Sequence record: SRR20825006_149
Length of the DNA: 51,290 bases
Strand: one strand, 5' to 3'
Within the stretch, counting starts at the first letter, position 1; every line of letters starts with the position of its first letter. The notes beneath the pieces are model-generated. The model searched no databases, had not been told where the DNA came from, and saw only the letters and a program-made list of their open reading frames with translations. A program made the translations under genes and the position numbers. Positions 28,123 to 51,290 of the stretch are shown piece by piece.

Positions 28123-28297
28123 TGGGCTTTCCCTCCATAACGGTTGTTTTCTCTCGAACGGAAGGAAGAAGCGCGTGACGCACAGACATGCATCAAGTGT
28201 CGATTTCCTCCCATTCAGGCTTTCGGCTGTTATTGTTCTTCTGACCGGTCGTTGCCGGGAGTGCCGTTTGCCTATGACGCAAAATCTAAACGAAAAA

Positions 28298-28316
28298 GCT
28301 GTCAGTTTGCTGTCTA
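28298..28316. promoter_or_regulatory. OmpR/PhoB-type direct repeat (candidate TctD site)
   Basis: GCTGTCAGTTT-GCTGTCTA with 11-bp period, between divergent tctC and tctD. Confidence 0.45.
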
Positions 28317-28365
28317 GGGTCAAATTTTTCATTTTCGAAGTCGTTTTCGGTGTTATTTAGGCAGA

Positions 28366-35597: not shown

Positions 35598-36665
35598 TCA
35601 GACGAAAGGTAACACTTGGCACGGCAGCCGGATTTCGACGGCAAGACCAGGATGATCAGAAGGGAATATCGACGCATCTCCTCCATGCGCCCGGGCAATC
35701 GCCCTGACAATTGGCAAGCCCAGGCCGGAACCACCACCGCTACGCCCCCGTGAGTCGTCCGCACGCCAGAACCGCTCGAAGGCACGCGTGCGGCTTTCTT
35801 CAGGAAGGCCCGGTCCTGTATCCGTGCAACGGAAAAAGACATACTGTCCTGCCACACCGGTCTCGACATGCACCGTACTTTGCGGCGCGTAACGACAGCA
35901 ATTTTCCAGAACCGCCACGAAAGCCTGCCTCAATCGCGCGCGGTCAGCACTGACGACGGCGCTGGACAACTGGCGCATTACCGTGATCCCGGCCTTGCTG
36001 AAATGATCCTCAAGCGAAAGGAGCGCCGCCTCGGCCTCCACCGCCAGATCAAGACGTGAATATTGCAGATCGAGCTGCCCTGCATTGCTCAGCGCCAGTG
36101 TCCGCAACTCCTCGACGATGGCCGACAGATCATCCACATGGTTAATCAGGCGACCATACAGTTCCGGACTGGGGGCGAAGGCACCATCCAGCAACCCCTG
36201 GAGCCGCCCACGCAGAATGGTCAAAGGCGTTCGCAATTCATGTGCAATGGCCGAGTTAGAATATTTCAACTCGGCCTCGGCACGTTGCAGTCGCCCTGCC
36301 ATCTGATTGAAATCGTCAACCAGATCGCTCGCCTCGCCAAAATTGCCCCGGCTCAATGAGGCGCGCGCCGAAAAATCCCCATTCGCCACCTTGCGCGCAG
36401 CCGCGGCAACAGATTTCAAAGGATCCACAATCCGTCGTGCCAGAACCCACCCCAACAAAGAGGCGGTTAATATGCCGATCCCCAGAAGAAGGCCCAACGT
36501 TACGATATCACCGGTGCGCAGGATGTCGTCGTCGGTGAAATCCGGATAAAGCCATTCATAAATGAAGAAGAAATACGCCGTTAACCCGAAATAAACGACG
36601 GTGAAAGCAAGCAATGTAAGCGAAATCATCGCACGAACGATGCGGGAATTCAGATTTCTAGCCAT
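35598..36665 (-). CDS. Sensor histidine kinase, AdeS/BaeS-like (very short periplasmic loop)
   Basis: Two TM segments, HAMP, NSAIAHELRTPLTILRGRLQG, DTGPG and GSGLGL; start set at MARNLN. Confidence 0.88.
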   Translation of the reverse strand: MARNLNSRIVRAMISLTLLAFTVVYFGLTAYFFFIYEWLYPDFTDDDILRTGDIVTLGLLLGIGILTASLLGWVLARRIVDPLKSVAAAARKVANGDFSARASLSRGNFGEASDLVDDFNQMAGRLQRAEAELKYSNSAIAHELRTPLTILRGRLQGLLDGAFAPSPELYGRLINHVDDLSAIVEELRTLALSNAGQLDLQYSRLDLAVEAEAALLSLEDHFSKAGITVMRQLSSAVVSADRARLRQAFVAVLENCCRYAPQSTVHVETGVAGQYVFFRCTDTGPGLPEESRTRAFERFWRADDSRGRSGGGSGLGLPIVRAIARAHGGDASIFPSDHPGLAVEIRLPCQVLPFV

Positions 36666-37359
36666 GGGTGTTGTCCAGTCGATAACCGACACCACGGACA
36701 CCGACGAGCATGCCATCCGCCCCGGCAGCAGCCAGTTTGCGCCGCAGATTGCTGACATGGCTGTCGACTGTCCGATCCAGCGCCTCACCCTCCGGCAGGC
36801 ACGCATCGACCAGTTCCGAGCGCTCGAACACCCTGCCAATCCTCAAGGCCATATAAGCCAGAATGCGAAATTCGGTTCTGGTAAGGCCGAGCACAACCGG
36901 TCCCGCCGCGCTTTCGACCTCCACCCGATAGGCCTGTGGATCAATGGTCAATGGTCCGACGCGCAACATTTGCCCGTCATCACGGGCAATGGTTCGCCGC
37001 AAGACCGCCTTAACACGCGCCACAACCTCAAGCGGGTTGAACGGTTTAACGACATAATCGTCTGCACCAATACGTAGCGCCTGCAACTTGTCGAGATCCT
37101 CGGCAAGCGCCGTTACCATGATGACGGGCGTGTCACCACGTCGACGGATCGCCGCCAGCACTTCATAACCGTCCTGCCCCGGCAGCTTGATATCCAGCAC
37201 CACAAGGTCGGGCCGCAAGCGCTGATGATGGGCAAGCCCGACCGTTCCATCACCAGCCGTAACAACCCGGAATCCTTCGCGTGACAGGTAAGTCCCGATG
37301 ATTTCCGCAATCTCGGGCTCGTCCTCAATGATGAGGATCAAGGCATTGTTCATGGACAT
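36658..37359 (-). CDS. Response regulator, AdeR/BaeR-like
   Basis: IIEDEPEIA, LRIGADDYVVKPFNPLEVVARV, DRTVDSHVSNLRRKL and VRGVGYR. Start is 37359 or 37353. Confidence 0.88.
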   Translation of the reverse strand: MSMNNALILIIEDEPEIAEIIGTYLSREGFRVVTAGDGTVGLAHHQRLRPDLVVLDIKLPGQDGYEVLAAIRRRGDTPVIMVTALAEDLDKLQALRIGADDYVVKPFNPLEVVARVKAVLRRTIARDDGQMLRVGPLTIDPQAYRVEVESAAGPVVLGLTRTEFRILAYMALRIGRVFERSELVDACLPEGEALDRTVDSHVSNLRRKLAAAGADGMLVGVRGVGYRLDNTHG

Positions 37360-37532
37360 GTTTTCGATCTTTGGCTTTTCACCCAAAAGGATTCATTTGA
37401 TTGAGGCGCATCTCACCCCAGGTTATTCACAACCGATTGAAAGTTCCATCATGCATCTGCCAGCAATGCCGGCATCGGAGTTCCAGAATAACACTCAACG
37501 ATTACTCCTCCCACGTCGAGGGCAGGTTAAGA

Positions 37533-37632: not shown

Positions 37633-39027
37633 TCATTGTGCTGCCGCAACCTCTTCATCAGCGATTGCAGTACTTCCGCCAAGCGCGCGGTAAAGCGTTG
37701 ATTCATTGACAAACTGTGCGAGCCGCACATCGGCAAGAACCACTTCGGCAGAACGACGGCGTTCCTGCGCATCAAGCCAGATGCGCAGGGTGGTCGCACC
37801 AGCCCGATAACGTGTCTCGGTCAGTTTCTCGACTTCCAGCGCGGCCATATAGGCATTATCAAGTCGGCGTGACTGCTCGCCATAGCTGGCGCGCGCACCA
37901 AGCGCATTGGCCACATCGGCAAACGCGTTCAGCAAAGTTTTGCGAAATGCGGTGACGGCCTCTTCATAATGGGTCTCTGAAACCGCAATCGTCAAACTCA
38001 TATCCTTCAGGTTAAGGAATGAGAGGACAGCACCTGCTCCCAGGGTTCCGACCGGGTTGGAGACGAAGGAAATCAGTTGATCGCTGCTGGTCCCTAACCC
38101 ACCGGTAAGCGATATCCCCGGATAGAAGCTGGTCCGCGTCGCGTCCACGCTCTTCAACGTCCCCCGCAACCGCGCTTCTGCTGCACGAAGATCAGGACGG
38201 CGGGCAAGCAGATCGGCGGGCAACCCTGCTGCAAGCTCCGGAAACTTCTTTCGCGGCAGGCTCTGCGGTTCTGGAACCGGGTTTGGCGCACCGTTCAAAA
38301 GGACCGTAAGCACATTGCGCAGAACAAGGCGGGCCTGCTGCAACTCCGCTACTCGCGCCGCCTGAGTCTCGACAGCTTGTTCGCTTTCTCTAAGTTCCAG
38401 ATCGGAAACATCCCCGACTTCTGCCTGCTTCCGCACGAGATCCTGAATTTGCTCTACATAATCAAGGCTGTTTATAGCCGATGCAACCGACTCATTGGCA
38501 TGGGCGATACGGAAATAGGTTTCGATCGTCATGCCGATGATTGCCAGGCGCGCCGCTTCGTAATCCTCGGCAGTTGCCTCCGCCTCGAAGCTTGTGCTGT
38601 CGCGCTGTGCCGCCAGTTTCCCCCACAAGTCGACTTCATAGGAAACACCGATTGCTGCAGACGAAGATGCTGTCGAAGTCGCACTTCCTTCAAGAGGCCG
38701 GCTCTTCGAAGTGTTAAGAGTCCCGCTCAACTTCGGGAACAGGGCATTTGCCGCAAGGTCGGCTTGCAGGCGCGCTCTGCGCGCACGAACGGTCGCAGCG
38801 AAAATGTCGTTGTTGCGACTGACCACTTCGCTGATCAGGGTGGTAAGTCCGGAATCTCCGAATGCAATCCACCACTGATCTGCACTCGCATTCGCCGTAT
38901 CTGCGGCAACCGAAGCAGACCATGTCGGCCCCTCCGGCAGATCAGGGCGCAGATAGTCTGTCGACGGGCTGGTGCAACCGGCAAGGACAACAAACAGGCA
39001 AGGAACAATCAATCTGACAAAAACCAT
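37633..39027 (-). CDS. Efflux outer-membrane factor lipoprotein (NodT/OprM family)
   Basis: Lipobox LAGC, WWIAFGD, YEVDLWGKL, PADLLARRPDLRAAE and LYRALGG. Confidence 0.9.
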   Translation of the reverse strand: MVFVRLIVPCLFVVLAGCTSPSTDYLRPDLPEGPTWSASVAADTANASADQWWIAFGDSGLTTLISEVVSRNNDIFAATVRARRARLQADLAANALFPKLSGTLNTSKSRPLEGSATSTASSSAAIGVSYEVDLWGKLAAQRDSTSFEAEATAEDYEAARLAIIGMTIETYFRIAHANESVASAINSLDYVEQIQDLVRKQAEVGDVSDLELRESEQAVETQAARVAELQQARLVLRNVLTVLLNGAPNPVPEPQSLPRKKFPELAAGLPADLLARRPDLRAAEARLRGTLKSVDATRTSFYPGISLTGGLGTSSDQLISFVSNPVGTLGAGAVLSFLNLKDMSLTIAVSETHYEEAVTAFRKTLLNAFADVANALGARASYGEQSRRLDNAYMAALEVEKLTETRYRAGATTLRIWLDAQERRRSAEVVLADVRLAQFVNESTLYRALGGSTAIADEEVAAAQ

Positions 39028-39029
39028 GA

Positions 39030-40976
39030 CTACTCTCTGGAAAGCGCAACGACCGGATCAAGCCGCGAGGCATTGCGTGCAGGCAGAAAACCGAAAACGA
39101 GGCCGATGAGAAGTGCGACCAGACAGGCGGAAAGGATGGCGTCGATCGAAATGATCATCGGGAATGAACTGCCCTGCCCCCCAAACGTAGCAGCCGCGCC
39201 AAGCGCCACTCCAACGCCAAGCAGAGATCCGGCAATGCAAATCGTGACAGCTTCAATCAGAAACTGAAGCATGATGTCGATACGCCGTGCGCCGACCGCC
39301 ATGCGCAGGCCGATCTCGCGGGTACGCTCGGTGACGGAAACCAGCATGATGTTCATAACGCCGATCCCACCAACGATCAGCGAAATGACCGCGACCGAAG
39401 AAATCAGCAGCGTCATCGTCCGCGACGTCTTCTCCATGATCCGGCGCAACTGGTCACTGTTGAAGACAAAAAAGTCCTGTATACCGTGACGGCGTGTCAT
39501 CAGACCGACAATCGCGCGTTCGGCAACAATCGTGTCAACATTGTCAGATATGCGAACGGTCAGCCCGGCAAGGCTCGTTGCCGCCCCAAGCAGCCTGCCG
39601 GCCACAGCAGTATAGGGAAGGTATATTTGCAGGGTTTTGCCCGACATGCCGGAACGCTGGGCCACCGTGCCGATGATGACCACCGGCACGCGATCGATCA
39701 TGATGATCTTGCCAAGCGGAGATTCACTACCCGGAAAAAGCGTAGTTGCGGCTCTGTCGTCTATCACGGCCTCCTGACGACGCTCGGCGATACTGTCGGC
39801 CGTGAAGCCGTTGCCCTGCACGATCTTGAGGCCGTTTACCCGAAAATAATCCTCACCGACACCGTCAACGTTGGCCGACATGGAAGTGCTGCCGAACCGA
39901 ATGCGCGCACTCGTCGACACCAGTGGCGTAACGCTGTCGATATAGTTTTGCGCAGACAAAGCCTCGGCGTCGGACACAACCAGCGTCCTGATGCTGTCGG
40001 CGCGCTCGTCGTCCCAACCCTGCCCGGGATAAATGGAAAGTGTACTGGCACCAAGTTCGCTGATCTCGGCAAGGACCCGCTGGCGTGTCCCTTCGCCCAG
40101 ACCGACGACTGAAACCACGGCAGCAATGCCAATGATGATCCCCAGCATGGTCAGGAATGTGCGGACCCGATGAGCCGCCATCGAGCGCAACGCCATGGGA
40201 AAAGCTTCTGCAAACCGTCGATGGAAACCTGCCAGCACGCCAACAGACCCGGAACGTGCAAAGGAAGGTAAGGGAGCACCAACCAGAGGTTCGCGGCATC
40301 GCTGGTCAGACAGAACCAGACCGTCACGGACTTCTATGATGCGATCAGCATGGGCCGCGACCTCCATATCGTGGGTGACGATAATGACCGTATGGCCGTC
40401 CCGATGAAGCTCCTTGAGAATCTCAAGCACGGTTTCACCGCTTCTGCTGTCAAGCGCTCCGGTCGGCTCGTCGGCAAGGATGATACGCCCACCATTCATA
40501 AGCGCGCGAGCAATCGACACCCGCTGCTGCTGACCGCCGGAAAGCTGACCTGGACGGTGATCGACGCGCTCGCCAAGGCCGAGACGCTCCAGAAGTGACC
40601 GGGCCCGCTCGCGCCGGGAGGCGGTATCAAGGCCTGCATAAACGGCTGGCATCGCGACATTGTCAGTCGAGTTGAGCGTGCCGAGCAAGTGATAGCGTTG
40701 GAAGATGAAGCCGAAATGCTCCCTTCGCAACGCTGCCAGTTCGTCTGCGCTCAAACCGGCAACACTGCGCCCACCGACACGGTAATCGCCCGCAGTCGGC
40801 TGATCAAGGCAGCCAAGAATATTCATGAGCGTCGACTTGCCCGATCCGCTTGCGCCCACAATCGCGACAAGTTCACCACTGTCGATATGAAGATTGATCC
40901 CCGCAAGCGCGGAAATGGTCTCTTCGCCCGTCTGAAACAGCCGTGTGACGTTCTCTATTTCCAGTAAAGCGCTCAC
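39030..40976 (-). CDS. macB: MacB-family ABC transporter (ATPase + FtsX permease)
   Basis: GASGSGKS, FGFIFQRYHLL, LSGGQQQRV and GGIGVMNIMLVSVTERTREIG. Confidence 0.92.
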   Translation of the reverse strand: MSALLEIENVTRLFQTGEETISALAGINLHIDSGELVAIVGASGSGKSTLMNILGCLDQPTAGDYRVGGRSVAGLSADELAALRREHFGFIFQRYHLLGTLNSTDNVAMPAVYAGLDTASRRERARSLLERLGLGERVDHRPGQLSGGQQQRVSIARALMNGGRIILADEPTGALDSRSGETVLEILKELHRDGHTVIIVTHDMEVAAHADRIIEVRDGLVLSDQRCREPLVGAPLPSFARSGSVGVLAGFHRRFAEAFPMALRSMAAHRVRTFLTMLGIIIGIAAVVSVVGLGEGTRQRVLAEISELGASTLSIYPGQGWDDERADSIRTLVVSDAEALSAQNYIDSVTPLVSTSARIRFGSTSMSANVDGVGEDYFRVNGLKIVQGNGFTADSIAERRQEAVIDDRAATTLFPGSESPLGKIIMIDRVPVVIIGTVAQRSGMSGKTLQIYLPYTAVAGRLLGAATSLAGLTVRISDNVDTIVAERAIVGLMTRRHGIQDFFVFNSDQLRRIMEKTSRTMTLLISSVAVISLIVGGIGVMNIMLVSVTERTREIGLRMAVGARRIDIMLQFLIEAVTICIAGSLLGVGVALGAAATFGGQGSSFPMIISIDAILSACLVALLIGLVFGFLPARNASRLDPVVALSRE

Positions 40977-42160
40977 ATCATCTCCATAGCGTTAGAGTCC
41001 GATGCCTGACCATCTGCCGGAATGACAACCTCCTCGCCGACCTGCAGGCCATCGATCACTTGCGCCTTGATCCGGTCAGTCAGTCCTATTGTGACAAGGC
41101 GCTCCGAAATTTCGCCAGAAGAGGAGCGGACACTAATGCGATAGCGACCGTTCTGATCGCGCTCGGTCAACGCTGACCATGGCACCAGCGGCACGTCCTC
41201 TGCCTGCCCCACCACAATGGTCACCAGAGTAGTCATCATGGGTCGCAGTCGGCCATCAGGATTGGGCGTTGTGAATATTCCGTTGAAATAAACAGCCTGT
41301 GTTGCCTGCCCTGCGGTTGTGGAGGCCGTCGTTGATTCTGTCGCGATTGATGTCGGGGCGGGCGCAATCTGCTCCAATCTGCCGACCGTCGGAAGATGGG
41401 TTTCGCCCATGATCGTGAAACGCACGATCTGGCCGGGTTTTACGCGGGTAATATCGGCTTCTGATATTCTTACCTTAACCTGCATGACGTTGAGCTCGGC
41501 CAGCACAATGATCGTCGGCACGGCCAGATTGGAGTTCAGTGTTTGGCCAGCCTTGGTAACGACCGCAACCACAACCCCATCCATCGGCGCGGTAACCTTC
41601 GTGTAGCCAAGGTTGGCTTTCGCGTTCTCGACCTCCACTGTGGCTTGGGCAATCTGCGCGTCCAACGCCTCGATATCAGCCGTCAGGACTTTGAACGCCG
41701 CCTCCGCCGTCTCAAGCTCGGCGACTGACGCCGCACGCTGACGGGCCATGCTCTTCTGCCTGTCATAGGCTTGCTCAGCCCGCCTGAGTTCAAAACCACG
41801 CGCCTTGCGCTGCGCCTTCACATTGGCAAGTGCCGCCTCTGCGATGCGAAGAGCATATGCCTGTGCCGTCGGGTCAATCTCGGCGATCAGATCCCCGGCC
41901 TTGATTTTCTGACCCAGTTCAACATGCAAGGTTTTCAACTGACCGGAAACCTGCGCACCGACACTGACGATCCGGGCAGGTTCGAGTTCACCATTGGCAA
42001 GAACCGTTTCCTCGATTGTGCCGAGCGAAACAAACTCGGTAAGCACGGATGCCTGCGGCTCTTCCTCAAGAACACCGCTGGCCGACGCCATTGCCACCAG
42101 CGCCACAGCAATTACGCCTGCGATGATCAGAGTTCGACCAATGCTATTTGACAGTTTCAT
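40973..42160 (-). CDS. macA: MacA-family periplasmic adaptor
   Basis: N-terminal TM, VGAQVSGQL, NLGYTKVTAPMDG and ISEADI; directly upstream of macB. Start set at MKLSNS. Confidence 0.87.
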   Translation of the reverse strand: MKLSNSIGRTLIIAGVIAVALVAMASASGVLEEEPQASVLTEFVSLGTIEETVLANGELEPARIVSVGAQVSGQLKTLHVELGQKIKAGDLIAEIDPTAQAYALRIAEAALANVKAQRKARGFELRRAEQAYDRQKSMARQRAASVAELETAEAAFKVLTADIEALDAQIAQATVEVENAKANLGYTKVTAPMDGVVVAVVTKAGQTLNSNLAVPTIIVLAELNVMQVKVRISEADITRVKPGQIVRFTIMGETHLPTVGRLEQIAPAPTSIATESTTASTTAGQATQAVYFNGIFTTPNPDGRLRPMMTTLVTIVVGQAEDVPLVPWSALTERDQNGRYRISVRSSSGEISERLVTIGLTDRIKAQVIDGLQVGEEVVIPADGQASDSNAMEMM

Positions 42161-42364
42161 TGTTGTTTTTACCAACCGACATTTATTGACCAGAAAAGAA
42201 GATCGTCGTTCAATCGGGTTCACTCTCGCCCCGAGACGACTGATCTCGATAACCCCGCCACATCAGCCAGATGGTTAGCCGTGGGCGGGTCGTTTGCGAG
42301 TTTTGAAAAAATCCCTGTGAACATGATTGCTTTCTTCAAGCACCATCTCACGCCGCAATGAAAG

Positions 42365-42396
42365 TTGGGTGCAGGTTATGTGGAGATCGCGTGGAC
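42365..42396. promoter_or_regulatory. AdeR-like triple direct repeat upstream of macA
   Basis: TTGGGTGCAG-G-TTATGTGGAG-A-TCGCGTGGAC, 11-bp period, same orientation as the 37533 site. Confidence 0.5.
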
Positions 42397-42435
42397 GCGC
42401 GCGTCTCCTCGCCCAGCTGCCCCGTAATCCAGGAC

Positions 42436-42479
42436 CCAAATGACAAAACCCCGCCAATCGGCAGGGTTTTGTCATTTGG
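42436..42479. terminator. Long stem-loop terminator ending the secretion-like operon
   Basis: Perfect 16-bp arms CCAAATGACAAAACCC / GGGTTTTGTCATTTGG with an inner GCC/GGC extension. Confidence 0.7.
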
Positions 42480-42592
42480 ATGCGACGGCAGGCATCCAGT
42501 CCGGCGCTCCATACCTGGAACGACAAACAAATATTTTGTAATATTAATTACTTAAATGAAATCTGCTCAAATGATCGATCCGGACAATCCCT

Positions 42593-44755
42593 CTAAAAAC
42601 TGACTTCCCGGATAAAGCCTGCGACTATCGCTTCATAAAGGCGGCGCGCCCAGCTCATGGGCTCGGCATCAATCTGCAGCCTGCCGCGCTGCATCATCGA
42701 AAAACCCTCGCCGGCCGGGGGACTTTCCCTATCCGTCGCAACGATCCCCTCCAGCTTGAAAACCGGATCATGCGGGGTGTATCGGCCATCCCTGTCCGCA
42801 GTCGCGGCAATTGTCCCGCCGTGGGTGGATACAAGGGCTGGTGTCTCGATATAGGTGCTGTTGAACCGCTCGACAGTCTCGACCTCGATGTCAAGAACGG
42901 GTTGGGTAAACTGTTCCGGATAGAACCTTGCCGATGGCCGGTTGCCGATACGCGCAATATCGCGCTGGGAGACATAGGCGACAACTTCCCATGACGCCCG
43001 TTCGCTGGCACCGACAATCCGCGCAAGCTGGGTGCGCGGTGCAATCCAGTCGCCAACCCGGATATCATCGGCCAGTTCGCGCACCATGCCGTCAATCGGC
43101 GCACGCAGGGTCAGAAGATCCTGCCGCGCTTCAAGGGCAACGATCCGCGCCGCCAGACGCCGCATTTCCTGAAGACGGGCGGCATAGTCGCCAAGATTAT
43201 CCCGGCTCGCCTCGGTCTGCGCCAGCAATATCCGCGCCTCGGCAAGCTCCAGCTCCCGAATGCGGTGTTCGGCATCAAGTTCCGGCGCGCTCAGAATGGC
43301 AATCGTATCACCGGCCCGGACCCGGTCCCCTTTTTTGACCGTGATTTCGACAACCTGGCCTGCAACCGTGCTGATGATCTCCGCATCATTGCTGGCCTGA
43401 AGCACCGCATCTGCCGAAACACGCGATTGCCACGGCACGAATGTCAGAACGGTCAGAACAGCCAACAGAAATCCCGTCACGACAAGCGACGGTGTGACTT
43501 TTGCGCTATGGCGGTCTTTCCACCAGTGTTTCATTTCATTTAAAACCGGAATGACGATGAACCATGCGATTTCGACCACAAAAAGGATAATGCCAAGAAC
43601 CTTGAAGAACAGGTGGTAAACCACCAGCGCAATGCCAAGAAACAGAAAGAAGCGATAAATCCAGACCGCAATCGCAAACGCCGTCAGCATTCGCCGCTTT
43701 TTGCGTGGCATCGGTTCGGGGGCGGGATGCCCGAACCGGAAAAGCGTCTCGCGGATCGTCCATTTCGCCATGGCAAAGGACCGGTTTTGCAGATTGGCAA
43801 TACCCAGAAAATCCGACAGCAGATAATAGCCGTCAAACCGCATGAAAGGGCTTAGATTGATCAGAAGTGTTGTGATCCAGGTTGTCGTCGCCAGAAGGAA
43901 CACCGCACTTTGCAACGGCCCGGGCGGCACAAGATGCCAGAAAAAAGTCGCCAGCAGCGCAAGTGCCAGCTCAACCCGGATACCGGCCGCCGCAATACGC
44001 AGCCTTTTTTCCTTGCTGATGATCCGCCAGGCATCGGACGTATCGGTATAAAGCACCGGATACATCACCAGAAACGCAACCCCCATCGACGGCACCCGGC
44101 AGCCATAGCGCGCCGCACTATAGGCATGCCCGAATTCATGAAGGATTTTGGCAAGCGTAAGTGTCACCGCCATCCACACCACGCCCTGCCAGTTGGCAAA
44201 GCCCATGAATGTCGACACAAACAGGTCCCATTGACGCAAGGTCAGGAAAATGCCGATCAACCCCAGGATCAGCACGCCCAACTGAACCGCGCGCGATGCG
44301 ATAATATCGGCAATCGGCTGGGTCTTGCGCAGGAAACCGTCCGGATGAACCAGCGGCACACGCACAAAAAGATAATTGTGGATCGCCCATTTCCAGAAGG
44401 GCGGTTTGCCCGCATTGGCAATGCGCGAAAACTCGGCCACGGTCTCGTTGCTGTCGCGCTGCAACAGACCATTACCATGCAGGAACTTTATCAGTCCGTT
44501 TAGCGAGGCCTCGTCAACGCTCAGAACCGTATCGCGGCAAATGCGCTCGATGATTGCCTGCCCCTGGCGCAAAGGCCACCGGCGCAGCATTTCAAACGCG
44601 GCATAACCGATCCGGAAATACCGGTTGCGCACCGGATCATGGATCGTCCAGCACGGCGCGCCATATTCATCGGTCCCGGCGGGCAGAAGCCTCAGATCCT
44701 CGCGCAGTGGCGGCACAACCAGCTCTTTTGCGTTCCCCTGCGGTGCGATTGCCAT
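42593..44755 (-). CDS. Fusion of PqqD/RRE-like domain + M50 site-2 metalloprotease + HlyD-type membrane-fusion domain
   Basis: N-terminal WTIHDPVRNRYFRIG...; HEFGH zinc motif (44126-44140); IAAAG; NLSPFMRFDG third-ligand motif; then lipoyl half-motifs VKKGDRVRAGD and LRAPIDG around a coiled coil. Confidence 0.85.
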   Translation of the reverse strand: MAIAPQGNAKELVVPPLREDLRLLPAGTDEYGAPCWTIHDPVRNRYFRIGYAAFEMLRRWPLRQGQAIIERICRDTVLSVDEASLNGLIKFLHGNGLLQRDSNETVAEFSRIANAGKPPFWKWAIHNYLFVRVPLVHPDGFLRKTQPIADIIASRAVQLGVLILGLIGIFLTLRQWDLFVSTFMGFANWQGVVWMAVTLTLAKILHEFGHAYSAARYGCRVPSMGVAFLVMYPVLYTDTSDAWRIISKEKRLRIAAAGIRVELALALLATFFWHLVPPGPLQSAVFLLATTTWITTLLINLSPFMRFDGYYLLSDFLGIANLQNRSFAMAKWTIRETLFRFGHPAPEPMPRKKRRMLTAFAIAVWIYRFFLFLGIALVVYHLFFKVLGIILFVVEIAWFIVIPVLNEMKHWWKDRHSAKVTPSLVVTGFLLAVLTVLTFVPWQSRVSADAVLQASNDAEIISTVAGQVVEITVKKGDRVRAGDTIAILSAPELDAEHRIRELELAEARILLAQTEASRDNLGDYAARLQEMRRLAARIVALEARQDLLTLRAPIDGMVRELADDIRVGDWIAPRTQLARIVGASERASWEVVAYVSQRDIARIGNRPSARFYPEQFTQPVLDIEVETVERFNSTYIETPALVSTHGGTIAATADRDGRYTPHDPVFKLEGIVATDRESPPAGEGFSMMQRGRLQIDAEPMSWARRLYEAIVAGFIREVSF

Positions 44756-44761
44756 GGCAGA

Positions 44762-46090
44762 TCAAAACCCGATCATCTGGCGCAATGCTGAAAGCGGACG
44801 GCGGAAAAGGAACAGCGCCAGCGGAACACGATCCCCCATGATTTTCGCCGATCCCTTCAACCCGATACGGGGAATGTCATCCGGGCTGTCAAAGCGCGCC
44901 ACCGCCTGATAGGCCAATATGCCTTCTGGCGTTTCCTTTGGCTGATAGGCGGCATATTCAAGCGTTGCGTCAATCGAACCAAGCGGATCAACATCCAGAA
45001 ACAGCCGGACCTCCGCCCCCGATTGCAGGGCGATGGCATCGGAAACCGGAATGGAAATACCAAGCTCGGCGGCATCGGGGGCGGCAATGGCCATGACCTG
45101 CTCACCCGTCGAAACAGGCCGCCCGCGCCAGTCATTGGAATCACTGAAAATCGCAATACCCGATTGCGGTGCCCTGACCTCGATCTGCGAAAGCTGATAG
45201 CGGCTGAATTCGGCCTGTTCCTGACGCAATGCCAGACGCGTCTGCGAAAGCGCAACCTCGGCCCGGCCCTTGGCATCCCCGAATGCCTGCTGCGATGCAC
45301 GGCGCAGTTCCGCCTCGGCGGTATCGACCGCGCGCAACGCTATCTCGTAATTTGCCTTGAATTCCGCACCTTCAAACGAAAACAGAAGATCGCCCTTTTC
45401 GACCGGCGCATTCGGACGAACACTGATTTCGCGAATAACCCCGGTGATCGGGGCGGCAATCATGACCGGATCGCGCGGCATGACCGTTGCCGGGGCAATA
45501 ATACTTTGCCGAACCGGGATGGCCAACACAAGAACAAGGCCGACGAAAACACCGGCCAGAACGGCGCGGCGTTTTTTCCCGGCCTCAAACAATCCGCCCC
45601 GCCTTTTGCGCGGGCGAAGCGCATTCCACGCATGGCCAAGCGCATCGGTCAGTTGTTCGACAAGAAGCAGTTCCCCGTCCTGCCATTCCGGGGCCCGGAT
45701 CAGTAACAGAAGGCCAAGCGATGTGCCATCCGGGGCAAGAACAGGCTGAGACAGGATATTGTCCTGAAGAAACTCCCGCCAGTCCGCTTCGACATCAGCA
45801 CCATCCGATGCACGCGAAAATATCTTCTTCTGATCGGGGGTAATCTGCCGGTTGGCAAGCTTTTCGACGAACCGGATATAGGGGGCATTGCGGTCCACCG
45901 TCGGAACGTTTGAAACAGCCACCACCCGCAATTTCCCATCCAGCCCATGCGAAAGCAACACCGCCTGCTGATAGGAAATCAGTCGGCGTGTTTCCGTAAC
46001 GGCCACGAACTGAAGTGCGGTCATATCCCGGGCCTGGCGGATGGACTTTTCGATGCCCAGCAAAATTGCGGATGCTGTAATGGTGCTCAT
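44762..46090 (-). CDS. HlyD-family membrane-fusion protein with N-terminal cytoplasmic GAF-like domain
   Basis: ~160-aa soluble N-terminus (VVAVSNVPTVDRNAPY, GTSLGLLLL), one TM, then IAAPITG/VRAPQSG lipoyl motifs, GRPVSTGE and RIGLKGSAKI. Confidence 0.8.
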   Translation of the reverse strand: MSTITASAILLGIEKSIRQARDMTALQFVAVTETRRLISYQQAVLLSHGLDGKLRVVAVSNVPTVDRNAPYIRFVEKLANRQITPDQKKIFSRASDGADVEADWREFLQDNILSQPVLAPDGTSLGLLLLIRAPEWQDGELLLVEQLTDALGHAWNALRPRKRRGGLFEAGKKRRAVLAGVFVGLVLVLAIPVRQSIIAPATVMPRDPVMIAAPITGVIREISVRPNAPVEKGDLLFSFEGAEFKANYEIALRAVDTAEAELRRASQQAFGDAKGRAEVALSQTRLALRQEQAEFSRYQLSQIEVRAPQSGIAIFSDSNDWRGRPVSTGEQVMAIAAPDAAELGISIPVSDAIALQSGAEVRLFLDVDPLGSIDATLEYAAYQPKETPEGILAYQAVARFDSPDDIPRIGLKGSAKIMGDRVPLALFLFRRPLSALRQMIGF

Positions 46091-46140
46091 TTTACCCGTC
46101 GGTTCTGGTCGCGTGCCGCTTCGCCCTGTGCCGGAAACGC

Positions 46141-46938
46141 TCAGGATTCCGGTTCAAAAACAGCAACACCGCTCATGCCCGGCAACAGCTTCCCGGCATC
46201 GCCATTGATGGCTGCAAAGACTTTAACCGTCTGGCTGACCGGGTCAATATCAGCACCGATCCTTTCGGTGGTTGCCGCAATGACCGATCCCGTTTCCTCG
46301 ATCCGCGCCTGAAAGCTCTGCCCCGTCGAAAGCCATGACAGCCAGCTTGACGGCACGATCAGTTCAAGTTCAAGATTGCCCGAACCGATGATTTCCATCA
46401 GTTCATCGGCAGGATTGGCAATCTGATAGGGCTGGCTCAGCCACTGGACAACAGCCCCGTCATAGGGTGCCGTGATCTTGCAGCGATCAAGATACACATC
46501 ATGAAGCTGCAACTGCGCCAGTGTCCGCTCCTTTGCTGCTTGCGCCATGACAACATCAAGCTCGCCAACACTGCGCAATTCAAAAAGCCGCTGCTGGGAT
46601 TTCAGTTGGGCATCGGCCTGGCGATAGTCGGCCGCCGCCGTTGCGCGTTGTGCCTTATAGGCCGCACAATCAAAAGAAATCAGCAAATCGCCCTGCTTGA
46701 ACTTCTGGCCCGGACGGACCGTCATTTTATCAATTCTCGCGGCCAGTTCACCGGCAAGAACGGCGCGATCCTGTGTGGTCACCAGAACACGCGCTTGCAG
46801 TGGTTCCTGCGCATCTGCCAGAACCGGAAACAACAAAGCCGAAACCGCAAGCATGCAAAACATGCTTGCGGCAGACTTGAATGTGCGGCCCGGGGACTGA
46901 ACCCGAAATCCGCGCAACGACGTCAGGCTAAAAAGCAT
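46141..46938 (-). CDS. Short periplasmic adaptor (RND/HlyD-type membrane-fusion protein)
   Basis: Signal/anchor ending ADA-Q, GQKFKQGDLL, ITAPYDG, IDPVSQT and LLPGMSG; ATG overlaps the TolC stop. Confidence 0.82.
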   Translation of the reverse strand: MLFSLTSLRGFRVQSPGRTFKSAASMFCMLAVSALLFPVLADAQEPLQARVLVTTQDRAVLAGELAARIDKMTVRPGQKFKQGDLLISFDCAAYKAQRATAAADYRQADAQLKSQQRLFELRSVGELDVVMAQAAKERTLAQLQLHDVYLDRCKITAPYDGAVVQWLSQPYQIANPADELMEIIGSGNLELELIVPSSWLSWLSTGQSFQARIEETGSVIAATTERIGADIDPVSQTVKVFAAINGDAGKLLPGMSGVAVFEPES

Positions 46939-48557
46939 CACTGAACAGCAGCCTGCTTCATTTCATTTTCTGATGCCGGATCGCCAACGTCTTCGGCAAC
47001 GGTGACCGGTGCATCGTAATCCCCCCGGTTCCAGCGCGACAGAACATCGCCGACCGTCTGCGCAAGCGTATCGACAGAATCATCAGGGATATCGTTCGGG
47101 AACGGATCTGCCCCGATCGAGGCAAACAGACGGCCATAGGATGCCTGCATGTCGGCATAGGCCATGTCGCGTTGCAGATTGCTGAGCAACGCACGGACAT
47201 CGGCACGGATCGCCTGCCCCTCGCCGACCGCATTGGCCGACTGGCTGGCATTGACGGTTTCCGATATCTGGTCCTGCACCGATGCGATCCGGTCGGTCAG
47301 TTCATAATCGCGCTTGGCAAAGGCAAACCGCAGTTGCGCGATATTGACCTGACTGATCACCGCCATGCTCAGCGCAAGACGCCGCACTTCCGAAAGTTCG
47401 ATCTGGCTGTCGGCAAGGCGCATGTTTGCCGGTGCCTTGAACAACTGCATCAGGTTCCACGAAAGATCAAGCGACCCTTCATACCAGTCGGAATTGACCT
47501 TGTAGCTGTCCGTGGTGTGATTGATACCGGCACTGAAATTAAGCCCCGGCACCATCTGCAGGATGGCGATCTTTGCGTCCTGCTGATTGATCCGCAACTG
47601 ATAGGCTTCCGAACGCAGTTCCGAACGGTTTTTCAACGCCTCCAGCTCAAGTTCCTCGGCACTCATCGAAAGAACCGGCATTGAACCGGTTTCCGGTTCA
47701 ACCGCGGCCGCAACCGTGAAATCGCTATCGGGGTGAATGTTCATCAGAACGGCAAGTTCGGTGCGGGCTTCCACCAGTTGACGCTGACGGGTTTCAAGTT
47801 CACGCAGGGTCAACAGAAGATCTTCCTGATAGGTCAGCGCATCAAGCGGCGCACCAACCCGTTCACGCACCTGCGTTTCGGAACGCGAAAGTGCCGTACG
47901 AACCTTTTCCAGGACCGGTTTGAACTGCACCAGCGCCCGTTCGGCTGCGGCTGCGCGCCAATAGGCACTGCGCGTATCATTGATCACGTTATGGATCACC
48001 TGGCGACGGCGTTCCTTGACGATAAGCGCCATGTCCGCCTGCTGATGGGCACGCATATAGCCAATGGCAAAATCCAGAACATTCCAGCTTACCGTCAGGT
48101 CGCTATCGCGGACTTTCTTGTCCGAACTGGTGGATGTCGAGGTTTTGCTCTCGTTATAGGTCGAGTCTGACCGGCTGCGCTGTGTCCAGCCGGAACTGGC
48201 AACCACGTCGGGCAGAAGATTGACATTGGCAACGTCAAGCTGCCCCATCGCAACGGCTTCTTCCATCAGCTTGAGCCGATGATCAAGGTTGTATTTAAGC
48301 GCACGCGCTATCGCTTCCTCAAGCGTCAGCGGCCCGGTGATCTTTTCCTGCTTTTCAAACAGGCGCTTCAGATCATTTTCAACCCGCGCATTATTTTCCG
48401 AAACCGTCAACGGCTCCGGCGCAACCGCACAGGCCGATAATACTGCCGCCGCAGTCAGCGCGACCGCCACATTCCGCCATTTTCGGAAAGTTCCGGGAAA
48501 CTTCAAAGCACGATAAACCAAGACGGTATTCCCCCAAGTAAATTCAAACTCCCGCAT
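46938..48557 (-). CDS. TolC-family outer-membrane channel (lipoprotein)
   Basis: Lipobox LSAC, LTLEEAIARALKYNLD, SWNVLDF and LSWNL. Start codon uncertain and may lie slightly downstream. Confidence 0.87.
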   Translation of the reverse strand: MREFEFTWGNTVLVYRALKFPGTFRKWRNVAVALTAAAVLSACAVAPEPLTVSENNARVENDLKRLFEKQEKITGPLTLEEAIARALKYNLDHRLKLMEEAVAMGQLDVANVNLLPDVVASSGWTQRSRSDSTYNESKTSTSTSSDKKVRDSDLTVSWNVLDFAIGYMRAHQQADMALIVKERRRQVIHNVINDTRSAYWRAAAAERALVQFKPVLEKVRTALSRSETQVRERVGAPLDALTYQEDLLLTLRELETRQRQLVEARTELAVLMNIHPDSDFTVAAAVEPETGSMPVLSMSAEELELEALKNRSELRSEAYQLRINQQDAKIAILQMVPGLNFSAGINHTTDSYKVNSDWYEGSLDLSWNLMQLFKAPANMRLADSQIELSEVRRLALSMAVISQVNIAQLRFAFAKRDYELTDRIASVQDQISETVNASQSANAVGEGQAIRADVRALLSNLQRDMAYADMQASYGRLFASIGADPFPNDIPDDSVDTLAQTVGDVLSRWNRGDYDAPVTVAEDVGDPASENEMKQAAVQ

Positions 48558-48749
48558 CTCTGCCCGACAGATACGCGGCTATCCGATGCGTCATCCGGGT
48601 CTGTTGCGATTCTGTCCAAAACCGCAACATCCCTCTTTCCATCTCGATCCCGCCCGGGCTCTTCGAAACCGGTCGGGACATTCCCTCATTCCGGCAGTCA
48701 GACAGGGTCGACCGCCGGAAAATCATTACTCAAGTCATCAAGCAAATCA

Positions 48750-51290
48750 TCACGCCGGAATACGATACGTGCCCAGAACCTGGTCAAGCAGCATCGTTTC
48801 CATTTCGGCGGCATCGCCAAAGGCTGCCAGTTGCGCGCTGAAATCGTCAAGTGCCGCGGCAAGCTCTGCCTCACCGTTACCATCGATCATGGCCTGATCA
48901 CCGCCACCCTCGCCAGTCGGGGTTTCACCGTCGCCACCTTCGCCACCTTCGCCACCCGGAGCCTCGCCCCCGGTTGAGGGCGCGCCCAGAATACCGTCAT
49001 TGCCAACAGGTGTTCCGGTTCCCGCTTCGCCACCGGCACCGCCGCCAAATCCACCGCCGAAGCCGCCGCTGCCCAAACCACCACCAAGGCCACCACCTAG
49101 TCCGCCGCCACCAAGGCCACCGCCCAAGCCGCCGCTGCCAAATCCGCCACCGGTCAAAGCAGCACCACCGCCGTTACCTCCCAGTCCGCTGGTAACACCC
49201 AGCCCGCTTCCGGCCTGGTTGACGCCAAGCCCTGTCGAAACCGGCGTGCCGGTATTGTCGATCGGGCTGGTACTGCCCAACTGGCCGGTCACGGTGGTCC
49301 GGATCGGGCCGCCGGAGTTGAACTGCCCGCCAGAACCATTGCCATTCGATCCGCCGCTAAGCGCACTGCTGACCGGCGTTCCCGCGTCCCCACCCGATCC
49401 CGGCGTTTGCAGGATCGGCGGGATCGTTACGACCGGTGTCGGTGGCGGCGCAGGCGGCGGCGGAGGCGGTGGTGGCGTTTCGGCCACCGGCTCTGTCACC
49501 CGTACCGTCACCGTGCTGGCCGTGCTGGTGTTTCCGCTGATATCGGTCAACGTCACGCTGATCGTCCGGTTCCCGCCTGCCGGTGTGCCCGAACTGTTTT
49601 CATAGGACAGCGCACGTATCAGCGTCTGAACATTTGACGGTTCCGCAGAAGTGTTGAAGTTGATCTTGAGCGTACTTCCCGCCCCGATCGGATTTTCGAG
49701 CGTACCAATGACAGTCCCGTTAACCCGAACATCCGTCCCGTCAAGGGTCACAGTCCCGGTGGTATCAAGTGTCAGGATATCCTGGGCTGCGTTACCGCCC
49801 CCGGTGATGCTGACCGTAAGGTTCCCGCCGTTACTGAAACCACCCGCAACGAAATCCGCATCCACTATGGCCGCATTCTGCCCGACATCAAGTTTGACCT
49901 TTTCACCGGTGGTATAGGCAACACTGTCCCCCGAAAGGTCGGTGATGGCCGGTCGGGCGGTAACATTGACAGTGATTGTATCGCTGTCGCTCACAGTGCC
50001 GTCCGATGTTTCCACGGTAATCGTACGCGAACCGGAAGCTGCCGCCGTAAACCGCAGATTGGCCAGCGTCGCATTGACATCGGCGACACTGCCGGAAATC
50101 TCGATGGAATTGGTGCCACCCCCGGTGATGCTCGCATTGCCGGTCGTGGTAAATGTTCCATGTCCACTGGGCACCGAAATTGTGGTGGTCACCGTCGCGC
50201 TATCGACATCCTCAACCGAAATGCCGGTGATCGCCTTTGCCTCGCCAACAACGGCGGTCTGTGCCCCCGGTACGGTATTGACCGGCGCATCATTGACGGC
50301 ACCGACTGCAACCGTCGCCGCGATGGACGCACTTGCGGTGTCCGAACCACCGTTGGTCGTACCGCCGCTGTCGCTAATGCCGGTAAGGGTCACAACACGG
50401 CTCGATGTGCCGGGATTGTTACTGCTTGACGCATAGGTCATGCCATCGACCACGGTTTGCGCATCCGCCGCACTCAGGGTACCGCCGGTAATCGTGATGG
50501 TCGCAACACCGCCCGTAACCGAAACGTTATAGGTCAGTCCGTTGGTGGCAGTGGACCCGGTTCCATTGACAAGCGAGATCGCCTTACCATCAAATGTGAT
50601 GCTGTCGCTGGCTTCGGCATTGGTCACCGTAAAGGTCATGCCCGAAATCGTCTGACCGCTTTCACCCGTGCTGATCGTGACACCAGAGAACAGATCAACC
50701 GCCGTACCGTTTTCGGTAAAGGTCGGAGTGCCACCAGTGGCCGAAACCGTCGGCGCATCATTCACACCCACCACATTGACCGTAACATCAGCCGGGGCGG
50801 AGGTAAAACCACCCGACGCATCGGTAACCGTCACCCGTACCGTCCGCGCCCCTGTCGTCGGATCATCCGCGTTGCTGTTGCTGTACTGGATCGCCGCCAG
50901 AAGGCTCGCGACCCGTGCAGGGGTGGCGTTGCCATCGAAATTGATCACCAGATTGTTGCCTGCGGCAATATTGTTGGCCAGCGTACCGATCACGGTGCCA
51001 CCGACACTGACAGTCGAGCCCGCAGTTGAGCCGGAAAGCGTAATCGTGCCCCCGGTCGAAAGCCCCAGGATATCCTGCGCAGCATTGCCGCCGCCTGTGA
51101 TACTGACGGTCAGATTGCCGCCATTGAAATCGGTATTGTCGCTATCGGCAACGGTCGCCGCCGTTCCGGCATCAATGGCAACCGCGCCGCCGCCTTCGGT
51201 ATAGGTGACACTATCCCCATTCAGATTGCCGATCACCGGAGCAGAGACGATATCGACATTGCCGCCGCCAACCTGCGGATTGACCGTACC
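48750..51290 (-). CDS. Giant repetitive extracellular/adhesin-like protein, C-terminal part (5' end outside the window)
   Basis: Frame open to the window edge. Thr/Gly/Val-rich cadherin/Ig-like repeats with VNDAP linkers, then a poly-Pro linker, GLGGG repeats, an acidic Gly linker and a helical C-terminal tail. Confidence 0.88.
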   Translation of the reverse strand, partial: GTVNPQVGGGNVDIVSAPVIGNLNGDSVTYTEGGGAVAIDAGTAATVADSDNTDFNGGNLTVSITGGGNAAQDILGLSTGGTITLSGSTAGSTVSVGGTVIGTLANNIAAGNNLVINFDGNATPARVASLLAAIQYSNSNADDPTTGARTVRVTVTDASGGFTSAPADVTVNVVGVNDAPTVSATGGTPTFTENGTAVDLFSGVTISTGESGQTISGMTFTVTNAEASDSITFDGKAISLVNGTGSTATNGLTYNVSVTGGVATITITGGTLSAADAQTVVDGMTYASSSNNPGTSSRVVTLTGISDSGGTTNGGSDTASASIAATVAVGAVNDAPVNTVPGAQTAVVGEAKAITGISVEDVDSATVTTTISVPSGHGTFTTTGNASITGGGTNSIEISGSVADVNATLANLRFTAAASGSRTITVETSDGTVSDSDTITVNVTARPAITDLSGDSVAYTTGEKVKLDVGQNAAIVDADFVAGGFSNGGNLTVSITGGGNAAQDILTLDTTGTVTLDGTDVRVNGTVIGTLENPIGAGSTLKINFNTSAEPSNVQTLIRALSYENSSGTPAGGNRTISVTLTDISGNTSTASTVTVRVTEPVAETPPPPPPPPAPPPTPVVTIPPILQTPGSGGDAGTPVSSALSGGSNGNGSGGQFNSGGPIRTTVTGQLGSTSPIDNTGTPVSTGLGVNQAGSGLGVTSGLGGNGGGAALTGGGFGSGGLGGGLGGGGLGGGLGGGLGSGGFGGGFGGGAGGEAGTGTPVGNDGILGAPSTGGEAPGGEGGEGGDGETPTGEGGGDQAMIDGNGEAELAAALDDFSAQLAAFGDAAEMETMLLDQVLGTYRIPA

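Follow-up and report, generated by a model that had tools for sequence, protein, structure and literature searches.

How does a giant repeat protein leave a bacterial cell when the genes beside it provide a TolC-family duct and several adaptor proteins, and no ATP-binding cassette (ABC) transporter to drive it? This question is raised by five co-oriented open reading frames (ORFs) on the minus strand, at positions 42593-51290 of a 51,290-nt stretch of DNA from sequence record SRR20825006_149, the whole of which was analyzed and is referred to here as the window. In order, they encode the C-terminal part of a large repeat protein, a TolC-family outer-membrane factor (OMF), a short periplasmic adaptor of the membrane fusion protein (MFP) type, an adaptor preceded by a cytoplasmic GAF-fold domain and a transmembrane (TM) helix, and a fusion of an M50 metalloprotease with a third adaptor. 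We consider it probable, at roughly 60%, that these genes specify a dedicated ABC-less, TolC-dependent machine for the export and processing of the adjacent giant proteins, in which the M50 fusion would be the inner-membrane core that recognizes and cleaves a terminal signal.

The five ORFs comprise 846 aa (open at the 5′ end), 539, 266, 442, and 720 aa, and all were found where a preliminary description of the locus had placed them (Table 1). A gap of 192 nt separates the giant gene from the TolC gene, which overlaps the short MFP gene by 4 nt, and the next two junctions are gaps of 50 and 6 nt. The unit is closed by a hairpin whose folding energy of −44.8 kcal/mol (z = −6.4) was equaled by none of 200 shuffles; it has no T-run and is absent from the output of a consensus terminator scan. 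An 83-aa ORF with a TTG start that spans this hairpin (42275-42526, minus strand) had no counterpart found in the related loci and is probably not a gene. The preliminary description had also pointed to the tight packing of the machinery genes and the strong terminal hairpin, to the absence of Walker motifs and of a resistance-nodulation-division (RND) permease, and to a TolC lipoprotein accompanied by three MFP domains, all of which are borne out. A motif search of the five proteins found neither Walker A nor ABC signature (LSGGQ) motifs, and none of the five matched an RND or major facilitator superfamily (MFS) permease in Pfam or NCBIfam. The further statement of the preliminary description that there is no ABC transporter holds for the operon and fails for the neighborhood, where a MacB and an MsbA-like ABC protein, both close by, had been overlooked.

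Which of the five proteins could then stand in the transporter’s place? Hydrophobic-segment analysis leaves the M50 fusion as the sole polytopic protein of the unit. Its AlphaFold2 (AF2) model (pLDDT 88.1) contains seven long helices within residues 155-439, a beta-hairpin between TM2 and TM3, and an adaptor hairpin at residues 491-546, while the positive-inside count of Lys and Arg in the loops predicts seven TM segments with the N-terminus inside and the C-terminus outside. The protein belongs to the M50 family by motif, and barely by Pfam score (Peptidase_M50, PF02163, residues 196-285, 27.5 bits against a cut-off of 27.2). Residues H206, E207, H210, N300, and D308, which make up the core of the two site-2 protease (S2P) signatures, are invariant across 113 family sequences, so the protease is almost certainly active. 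According to the orientation count, the HEFGH motif and D308 would lie at the cytoplasmic face, the N-terminal domains of both this protein and the GAF-TM-MFP protein would be cytoplasmic, and all three adaptor bodies would be periplasmic. No PDZ or CBS domains were found in the fusion. Within residues 351-413, three charged residues that lie outside the S2P catalytic core are likewise invariant in the 113 sequences: R368, halfway along TM5, and two residues of TM6, K385 at its beginning and E395 at its middle. That they are candidate proton-coupling or gating residues, as buried charges could be, is speculation.

What might such a protease recognize? Ahead of its membrane part, AF2 places a domain with strands at residues 22-26, 35-40, and 45-49 and helices at 51-58, 65-75, and 82-94. 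Three strands followed by three helices is the order of the recognition elements (RREs, of the PqqD fold) that belong to ribosomally synthesized and post-translationally modified peptides (RiPPs). The domain is strongly conserved, with L17, R18, G32, D40, and W60 invariant, and its feature look-alike score reaches 0.95 to a cluster in which 25% of the members carry PqqD. Together, the N-domain and the M50 part match the daptide intramembrane protease family NF041824 over residues 42-401 (158.3 bits, E 3e-46), and the M50 part matches NF058609 (YydH/LiaK) over residues 184-325 with 36 bits against a cut-off of 225; by these scores, the fusion is a relative of the RiPP M50 proteases and not a member of them.

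The structural comparisons speak mostly about the adaptor end. Among solved structures, the one that the MFP part matches best by sequence is HlyD, as contained in the HlyB/D complex (8dck, profile E 7.9e-13), and by structure this part matches MacA, MexA, and EmrA; the adaptor folds of both the GAF-MFP and the M50 fusion match MacA, MexA, AcrA, and EmrA (Foldseek E 1e-13 to 1e-15). For the protease part, MJ0392 (3b4r) is a weak hit (E 0.0013). No solved structure was found for the M50-fusion family itself; on the adaptor side, HlyD 8dck and MacA come nearest to it, and on the protease side MJ0392 does. Comparison of the whole models of the two proteins with the PDB returned adaptor structures only, which is uninformative on the N-domain, the GAF domain, and the M50 core.

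The remaining machinery proteins supply the path across the periplasm and the outer membrane. The 539-aa protein matches Pfam OEP (PF02321) in two stretches with 107.8 bits against a cut-off of 22, and the TIGR01844 model, specific for type I secretion systems (T1SSs), with just 27.9 bits against a cut-off of 225; a hydrophobic segment at residues 29-47 includes the lipobox LSAC at 40-43. The 266-aa adaptor scores 103.2 bits with the RND_mfp model TIGR01730 (cut-off 94.9), and since its sole hydrophobic segment, at residues 20-38, resembles a signal peptide and no further membrane span follows, we read it as a signal peptide plus a soluble periplasmic adaptor. In the AF2 model of the 442-aa protein (pLDDT 92.5), a TM helix at residues 175-193 precedes the two-helix adaptor hairpin at 242-301. 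Its N-terminal domain reaches 16.8 bits with Pfam GAF, below the cut-off of 22.4, while by structure it resembles Atlas clusters in which 98-100% of the members are GAF proteins, with a template modeling score of 0.87-0.88 (by query), and its AF2 secondary structure fits that fold. HlyD_3/HlyD_D23 domains were detected by Pfam in all three adaptors, which score far below the cut-off of TIGR01843. Sequence and models predict that three different adaptors, one soluble, one with a GAF domain and a TM helix, and one fused to the M50 protease, reach the TolC duct.

Is this arrangement a peculiarity of the window? The M50-fusion family comprises at least 6992 clusters at 90% identity (E ≤ 0.001). 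At 50% identity and with E ≤ 1e-30, it still spans 5699 clusters, and the lengths of the best 150 of these fall without exception within 648-741 aa. Scanning one genome per species, we confirmed 586 loci among the first 600 pattern matches and kept 80 (designated by L numbers) with flanks of up to 10 kb, drawn from the Alpha-, Beta-, and Gammaproteobacteria and the Nitrospirota. Partners were counted among the six-frame ORFs of these loci with the window proteins as queries, the ORF calling being a crude method of our own. Of the 72 loci with at least 1.5 kb of upstream sequence, 71 have a GAF-MFP gene immediately before the M50 fusion, a short MFP gene is found upstream in 62 of 66, and the complete order TolC, MFP, GAF-MFP, M50-MFP, as in the window, recurs in 53 of the 61 loci with at least 4.3 kb upstream. 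A sixth conserved gene was sought by all-against-all BLAST of the unlabeled flanking ORFs of 120-420 aa, among which the largest family occurs in only 5 of 81 sources (the 80 loci and the window), and Pfam returned a heterogeneous list for 34 ORFs just downstream.

The preliminary description had proposed a survey of the neighborhoods of M50-MFP homologues for ABC genes, and we carried it out with a nucleotide-binding-domain hidden Markov model built from the window MacB and iterated once against all six-frame ORFs of the 80 loci. No more than 7 of the 80 loci have the domain anywhere in their flanks of up to 10 kb, and in none of them does it fall inside the cassette. Besides, longer fused forms of the M50 fusion were sought without success, which is weak evidence.

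Annotated replicons tell the same story. On plasmid p2 of Azospirillum brasilense Sp7 (locus tags AMK58_RS22620-22640), the gene for a 4195-aa DUF4347 protein accompanies those for TolC, for two adaptors, and for the M50 fusion, and the only transport genes flanking them are a mechanosensitive channel, which follows about 0.8 kb downstream, and, at a distance of about 15 kb, an L-lactate permease; the same five genes occur on plasmids of Kosakonia cowanii and Burkholderia anthina. In Escherichia coli, the five genes lie between IS5 and IS1 insertion sequences (ISs) on a 69-kb IncF plasmid (L082, NZ_CP081687.1) and between IS1 and Tn3/IS5 remnants on a chromosome (L088, NZ_CP010169.1). No transporter gene is present within the unit in the annotated A. 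brasilense, E. coli, Kosakonia, or B. anthina records. An E. coli gene of the unit was found at 99% identity or more in 24 of 5426 complete genomes, in 21 places on plasmids and 4 on chromosomes, and the unit also occurs on Citrobacter and Hafnia plasmids, which suggests its recent horizontal spread among enterobacteria. That the giant gene and the four machinery genes move between replicons as a unit is an argument that the locus need contribute no more than these five to the function.

If the four genes form a machine, what is its cargo? In 35 of the 49 loci with at least 2 kb upstream of the TolC gene, that gene is immediately preceded by the end of an ORF of at least 600 aa, mostly cut by the edge of the locus. 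Among the other 14, a DUF4347 ORF is present in nine, either downstream of the M50 gene or next to TolC in divergent orientation, three (L029, L031, and L039) have large ORFs one gene further or in pieces, and two (L055 and L066) end right after the M50 gene. This brings the informative loci whose cassette is flanked by a giant or a DUF4347 gene to 44 of 49. The preliminary description had suggested looking for an N-terminal DUF4347 domain on the giant, and although the 5′ end of the giant gene lies outside the window, the domain is present in 15 of the 17 neighboring giants with a readable N-terminus and in the closest complete orthologue of the window protein; the two giants that lack it, in Pseudomonas (L020) and Marinomonas (L035), carry a beta-propeller instead. 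In the Nitrospirota loci L057, L068, L070, and L079, a single cassette has a giant on either side, each with the N-terminal motif described below and DUF4347; one of the two is divergent and lies upstream of TolC, and the other follows the M50 gene, so one machine may serve several substrates.

The window giant itself is visible only in its C-terminal 846 aa. This part matched no Pfam family at E ≤ 0.01 (one chance-level row at E ≤ 1) and no NCBIfam family; it contains two VNDAP motifs, and no repeats-in-toxin (RTX) array was found in it, with a single chance GGxGxD and no HemolysinCabind match, a domain that some related giants, such as that of L049, do carry. Over 705 aa, it shares 71% identity with residues 1076-1775 of a 1940-aa ORF in L001, the complete orthologue mentioned above, which has the N-terminal motif, DUF4347 (PF14252, 188 bits), and Cadherin_4. 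The label of cadherin/Ig-repeat protein given in the preliminary description is not confirmed for the visible part and finds a counterpart in the Cadherin_4 match of this orthologue. Because the orthologue has only 1940 aa, “giant” may mean about 1900 aa in the window.

Two short motifs at the ends of the giants offer a handle on recognition. The N-terminal one, LExRxxxD[GA], stands 3-125 residues from the start in all 24 neighboring giants checked, 20 ORFs carrying the strict pattern and four (L027, L061, L075, and L080) a looser one, with the DUF4347 fragments of L053 and L060 left out; its L, E, R, and D are invariant in an alignment of the 20, and it is more general than DUF4347. The C-terminal one, [FL][STA]xQ[LVF] at 24-45 residues from the end, is present in 16 of the 32 giants directly upstream of a TolC gene, against a background of 11 in 706 internal 70-aa windows and 17 in 662 C-termini of other ORFs (2-3%), both patterns having been derived from the same data on which they are counted. 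It is followed by a hydrophobic or amphipathic stretch, and several of the remaining 16 giants show looser variants by eye. In the window, FSAQL stands 30 residues before the C-terminus, and the tail that it begins is a candidate export or recognition signal. No Sec-type signal was seen in those N-termini of giants that were read.

Do these motifs belong to the cassette, or merely to DUF4347 proteins? All five cassette-linked annotated giants carry both motifs, the B. anthina variant LEPRVVYDA, which matches neither pattern, having been read by eye. Meanwhile, an unlinked DUF4347 protein of Phaeobacter begins directly with DUF4347 and has neither terminal motif, and an unlinked one of Dolichospermum lacks the N-terminal motif, its C-terminus lying outside the sequence compared. 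Motif presence thus appears to track linkage to the cassette, in the direction that reading the motifs as sorting signals predicts, which is telling for a small sample. As an observation on the domain itself, comparison of 13 DUF4347 domains (L001, L018, L045, L047, L049, L057, L061, L062, L063, L070, L075, L079, and L080) showed an invariant His in a hydrophobic strand, the His of “SHG” in 12 of the 13, an invariant “YGC”, and a largely kept “D.AAS.D.TG....GGDW.LE”. The pair of His and Cys after strands recalls, as we assume, the clan-CD (caspase/CHAT-like) cysteine peptidases; if DUF4347 is clan-CD-like, the giants might process themselves.

The preliminary description had suggested that the M50 fusion may replace the ABC transporter as recognizer, processor, or translocator of the substrate. 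All the genomic predictions that it put forward for checking turned out in favor of this suggestion, which finds partial support as a whole and is a hypothesis at the functional level. Taken together, these elements can be arranged into a putative working cycle. The cytoplasmic N-domain of the M50 fusion would recognize a terminal peptide, either the LExRxxxD[GA] motif or the tail formed by the C-terminal motif and its helix, and the protease would cut the recognized segment at the interface of membrane and cytoplasm, mirroring the leader peptidase that is fused to the exporter in peptidase-containing ABC exporters. The unfolded chain would then exit through a mixed adaptor ring and TolC, with the GAF domain gating export on a small-ligand cue. 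The chain could pass C-terminus first, as in a classical T1SS, in which case the N-terminal motif and DUF4347 would serve as an anchor that stays in the cytoplasm or plugs the duct and is later severed; alternatively, it could pass N-terminus first after leader removal, which would permit co-translational export of a very long polypeptide. Candidates for the driving force are the proton-motive force (PMF), acting through the extra TM helices, the extracellular Ca-dependent folding of cadherin-like repeats as a ratchet, and a housekeeping ABC transporter in trans.

More tentatively, and with doubts that outweigh our confidence, we propose that the cassette represents a new class of secretion system in diderms, in which a ring of S2P-type metalloproteases fused to adaptors would itself be the translocon, combining RRE-like recognition, cleavage, and exit through TolC without an ATPase. 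Its energy would come from the PMF or from a ratchet of folding or translation, and the GAF domain would gate it.

Several observations weigh against a dedicated ABC-less machine. No energy-coupling module was found in the five-gene unit, and we know of no protein exporter that works without one. In the window itself, MacB lies 1.6 kb downstream of the cassette and the MsbA-like exporter about 7 kb further, and in L005 and L067 the cassette has an ABC gene as its immediate neighbor; besides, since the flanks end at 10 kb, the far ends of most giants and the genes beyond them lie outside, and the ORF calling in the loci is crude. The TolC gene is missing from its usual place in 8 of the 61 loci, four of which also lack the short MFP there, one of the eight (L024) having both genes divergent and downstream. 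On the side of recognition, the isolated N-domain of the window protein has no Pfam match at E ≤ 10, PqqD included, PqqD matches in the N-domains of relatives number 4 in 62, all below the cut-off, and the NF041824 score is about half of that family’s 300-bit cut-off. The PqqD/RRE-like label of the preliminary description thus keeps its fold topology and weak leads and gains no family match. As for the substrates, the C-terminal motif was defined on the giants in which it is counted, and among plasmid records, DUF4347 appears in 116 and the M50 fusion in 63, with at most one fusion in 40 Phaeobacter records; because DUF4347 proteins occur on replicons away from any cassette, DUF4347 alone is no marker of the system.

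The serious rival is an ordinary T1SS whose ABC transporter is encoded elsewhere, with the three adaptors docking on a housekeeping or unlinked ABC dimer and the M50 fusion acting as an accessory that trims or releases the substrate. Such a transporter in trans would solve the energy problem, given that a canonical T1SS needs ATP hydrolysis, as is generally known and as the review PMC8277102 also has it, and the ABC genes near the cassette in the window and next to it in L005 and L067, together with the 10-kb limit beyond which most genes past the giant lie, leave room for it. For the source organism, it is possible that the stand-alone MsbA-like half-transporter acts as such an exporter; it scores 390 bits with MsbA_rel and 352 bits with type_I_sec_HlyB, both well below the cut-offs, and has no adjoining adaptor gene. 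The operon of MacA, MacB, and an OMF, a second TolC-type system beside the five-gene unit, was rejected as the general missing pump because its adjacency is not conserved in the 80 related loci, and may be a partner in the source organism. What speaks against a transporter in trans is the scarcity of ABC domains in the flanks, the IS-bounded E. coli island that travels as five genes with no ABC gene among them, and, more weakly, the lack of longer fused forms of the M50 fusion; moreover, having its own MFP, the fusion fills the inner-membrane position normally taken by the adaptor’s partner. On balance, we regard this rival as unlikely.

Retention followed by release is a variant of the ABC-less machine that assigns the protease to the last step: the giant would be threaded C-terminus first and held by its folded DUF4347 region as a plug, until the GAF-controlled M50 protease cuts near the N-terminal motif and releases it. 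The functional analogue would be LapD/LapG acting on LapA. Such a scheme would make sense of the succession of a conserved N-terminal motif, a folded domain, and a low-complexity linker, of a C-terminal tail resembling a T1SS signal region, and of an operon that combines a cytoplasmic GAF sensor with a protease whose active site would face the cytoplasm. It does not explain what drives export, however, and names no ligand for the GAF domain; moreover, LapG, a cysteine protease of the periplasm, and LapD, a receptor for c-di-GMP, have no homologues among the proteins here. We judge this variant decidedly improbable. Finally, a RiPP-like peptide or small-molecule efflux pump, with the giant a neighbor by chance or through shared regulation only, would suit the similarity of the M50 part to RiPP leader proteases and the pairing of MFP with TolC that is typical of efflux, but it is hardly credible given giants or DUF4347 genes at 44 of 49 informative loci in four phylum- or class-level groups, terminal motifs that track the cassette, the lack of a permease, and the lack of any recurrent extra family among the flanking ORFs of 120-420 aa (at most 5 of 81 sources, ORFs below 70 aa falling outside the scan).

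The features named above are collected in Table 1 with the neighboring genes. For three further minus-strand ORFs of the window, at 12932-15400, 24918-26897, and 27022-28332 (822, 659, and 436 aa), NCBIfam gave no match at E ≤ 1e-5. Small genes annotated as “tail fiber protein”, with a Phage Tail Collar domain, adjoin the cassette or giant of Zooshikella, A. brasilense, Kosakonia, and B. anthina; the comparison of flanking ORFs from 81 sources did not find them as a general neighbor.

Table 1. Positions of the cassette, its parts, and neighboring genes; coordinates refer to the window unless a locus is named.
Feature	Position	Strand	Basis or remark
Large repeat-protein gene, 3′ part (846 codons plus stop), presumed substrate	48750..51290	-	5′ end outside the window
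C-terminal tail of the repeat protein: FSAQL (residues 817-821 of the visible part), then 25 residues, amphipathic/hydrophobic stretch, stop	48750..48842	-	translation, tail comparison; candidate signal
TolC-family outer-membrane factor, predicted lipoprotein, 539 aa	46938..48557	-	Pfam OEP, lipobox
Short periplasmic adaptor (MFP), 266 aa	46141..46941	-	HlyD_3, HlyD_D23, TIGR01730
GAF-TM-MFP, 442 aa	44762..46090	-	AF2, Pfam, structure look-alikes
GAF-fold cytoplasmic domain, residues 1-160 of the 442-aa protein	45611-46090	-	AF2 alpha/beta domain, structure look-alikes
Fusion of cytoplasmic beta3-alpha3 (RRE/PqqD-like) domain, 7-TM M50 metalloprotease, and periplasmic MFP, 720 aa	42593..44755	-	AF2, Pfam, NCBIfam
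RRE/PqqD-like N-domain of the fusion, residues 15-100	44456..44713	-	AF2 topology
HEFGH zinc-binding/catalytic motif, residues 206-210	44126..44140	-	near the cytoplasmic end of TM2
NLSPFMRFDG, second S2P signature, residues 300-309, third zinc ligand D308	43829..43858	-	cytoplasmic end of TM4
Hairpin	42436..42479	-	22-bp perfect stem, 114 nt past the M50-MFP stop, closes the unit
MacA	40973-42223	-	Pfam/NCBIfam; after the hairpin
MacB	39030-40976	-	domains MacB_PCD, ABC_tran, FtsX
NodT/TdeA-like OMF	37633-39027	-	Pfam/NCBIfam; completes the MacA-MacB-OMF operon
AdeS/AdeR-like sensor kinase and response regulator	35598-37386	-	after the MacAB-OMF operon
Stand-alone MsbA-like ABC half-transporter, 604 aa	33808-35622	-	within 9 kb of the cassette
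Phage Tail Collar genes	L063 12339-14638; L081 1-2670; L086 22164-24271; L087 5445-6059		sometimes tandem, sometimes with a GNAT acetyltransferase gene

Has such a system been described before? The preliminary description knew of no mechanistic characterization, and the full-text literature, a coverage outside which subscription journals and supplements fall, likewise yielded no description of the gene arrangement, of the M50-MFP fusion, or of its function. NCBI models name the proteins only generically, which fits an uncharacterized family. Among reports on the presumed substrates, DUF4347 proteins of Azospirillum baldaniorum appear as in silico candidates for biofilm matrix proteins, export not being mentioned in the passages concerned (PMC13723633), and a Burkholderia thailandensis DUF4347 protein is recorded as increased in stationary phase (PMC12322963).

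If the proposed machine is real, one would have to ask how a chain of 2000-4500 residues can pass two membranes when no ATPase is dedicated to the task, and a large uncharacterized class of DUF4347-headed giants would gain an export route and two candidate sorting signals. The system is directly testable in the compact, IS-bounded E. coli unit and also in the genetically tractable Azospirillum and Pseudomonas.

How, then, does the proposed machine compare with known systems? With tripartite efflux pumps such as MacAB-TolC it shares the MacA/AcrA-type adaptor folds, and two-adaptor pumps such as TriABC are a precedent for more than one adaptor species per pump; it differs from them in having no ABC, RND, or MFS permease and in a presumed cargo that is a protein. 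Tripartite TolC machines are described, in the review PMC8277102, as built on ABC, RND, or MFS inner-membrane transporters (a text match to “M50” in that article is residue M507 of MacB), so that the proposed machine, if real, would add a new inner-membrane module to the tripartite scheme. With site-2 proteases such as RseP, SpoIVFB, and MJ0392, the fusion shares the invariant HExxH and NxxPxxxxDG, and it departs from these proteases by four extra TM helices, the N-terminal beta3-alpha3 domain, and the C-terminal MFP, as well as by the lack of any PDZ or CBS domain detected. The RiPP M50 proteases (NF041824, NF058609) are closer, with a homologous N-domain and M50 core, HExxH chemistry, and NCBIfam names that imply a role as leader or maturation proteases; the family in question differs in its fused MFP, its diderm hosts with TolC, and its neighbors, which are thousands of residues long in place of short precursors.

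Two exporters come nearest. The T1SSs for giant adhesins, of which LapA/LapBCE and SiiE/SiiCDF are examples, differ from the proposed machine in having an ABC exporter (of the HlyB/PrtD/LssB type) and one adaptor, in contrast to three adaptors and an M50 protease as the only polytopic inner-membrane protein; the visible substrate here has no RTX nonapeptide array, and the giants carry a conserved N-terminal motif and DUF4347. The cassette is thus not a canonical T1SS, since a search for the ABC exporter that defines one came up empty. The likeness lies in the combination of a TolC-family duct with an HlyD-type adaptor, as in HlyBD-TolC, in the adjacent and co-oriented substrate gene, and in the substrate itself, which is large and acidic, consists of cadherin-like repeats, lacks a Sec signal, and has a conserved extreme C-terminus. 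The peptidase-containing ABC exporters, which belong to bacteriocin-type T1SSs, carry a cytoplasmic papain-like C39 domain on the ABC protein, unlike the intramembrane zinc enzyme fused to an adaptor, with putative cleavage, that is proposed here; in both, a protease is built into the inner-membrane export component, from where it could recognize a short conserved leader, remove it, and hand the cargo to MFP and TolC. By analogy, the proposed machine is therefore most like the T1SSs for giant adhesins in its working and, in concept, also like the peptidase-containing ABC exporters.

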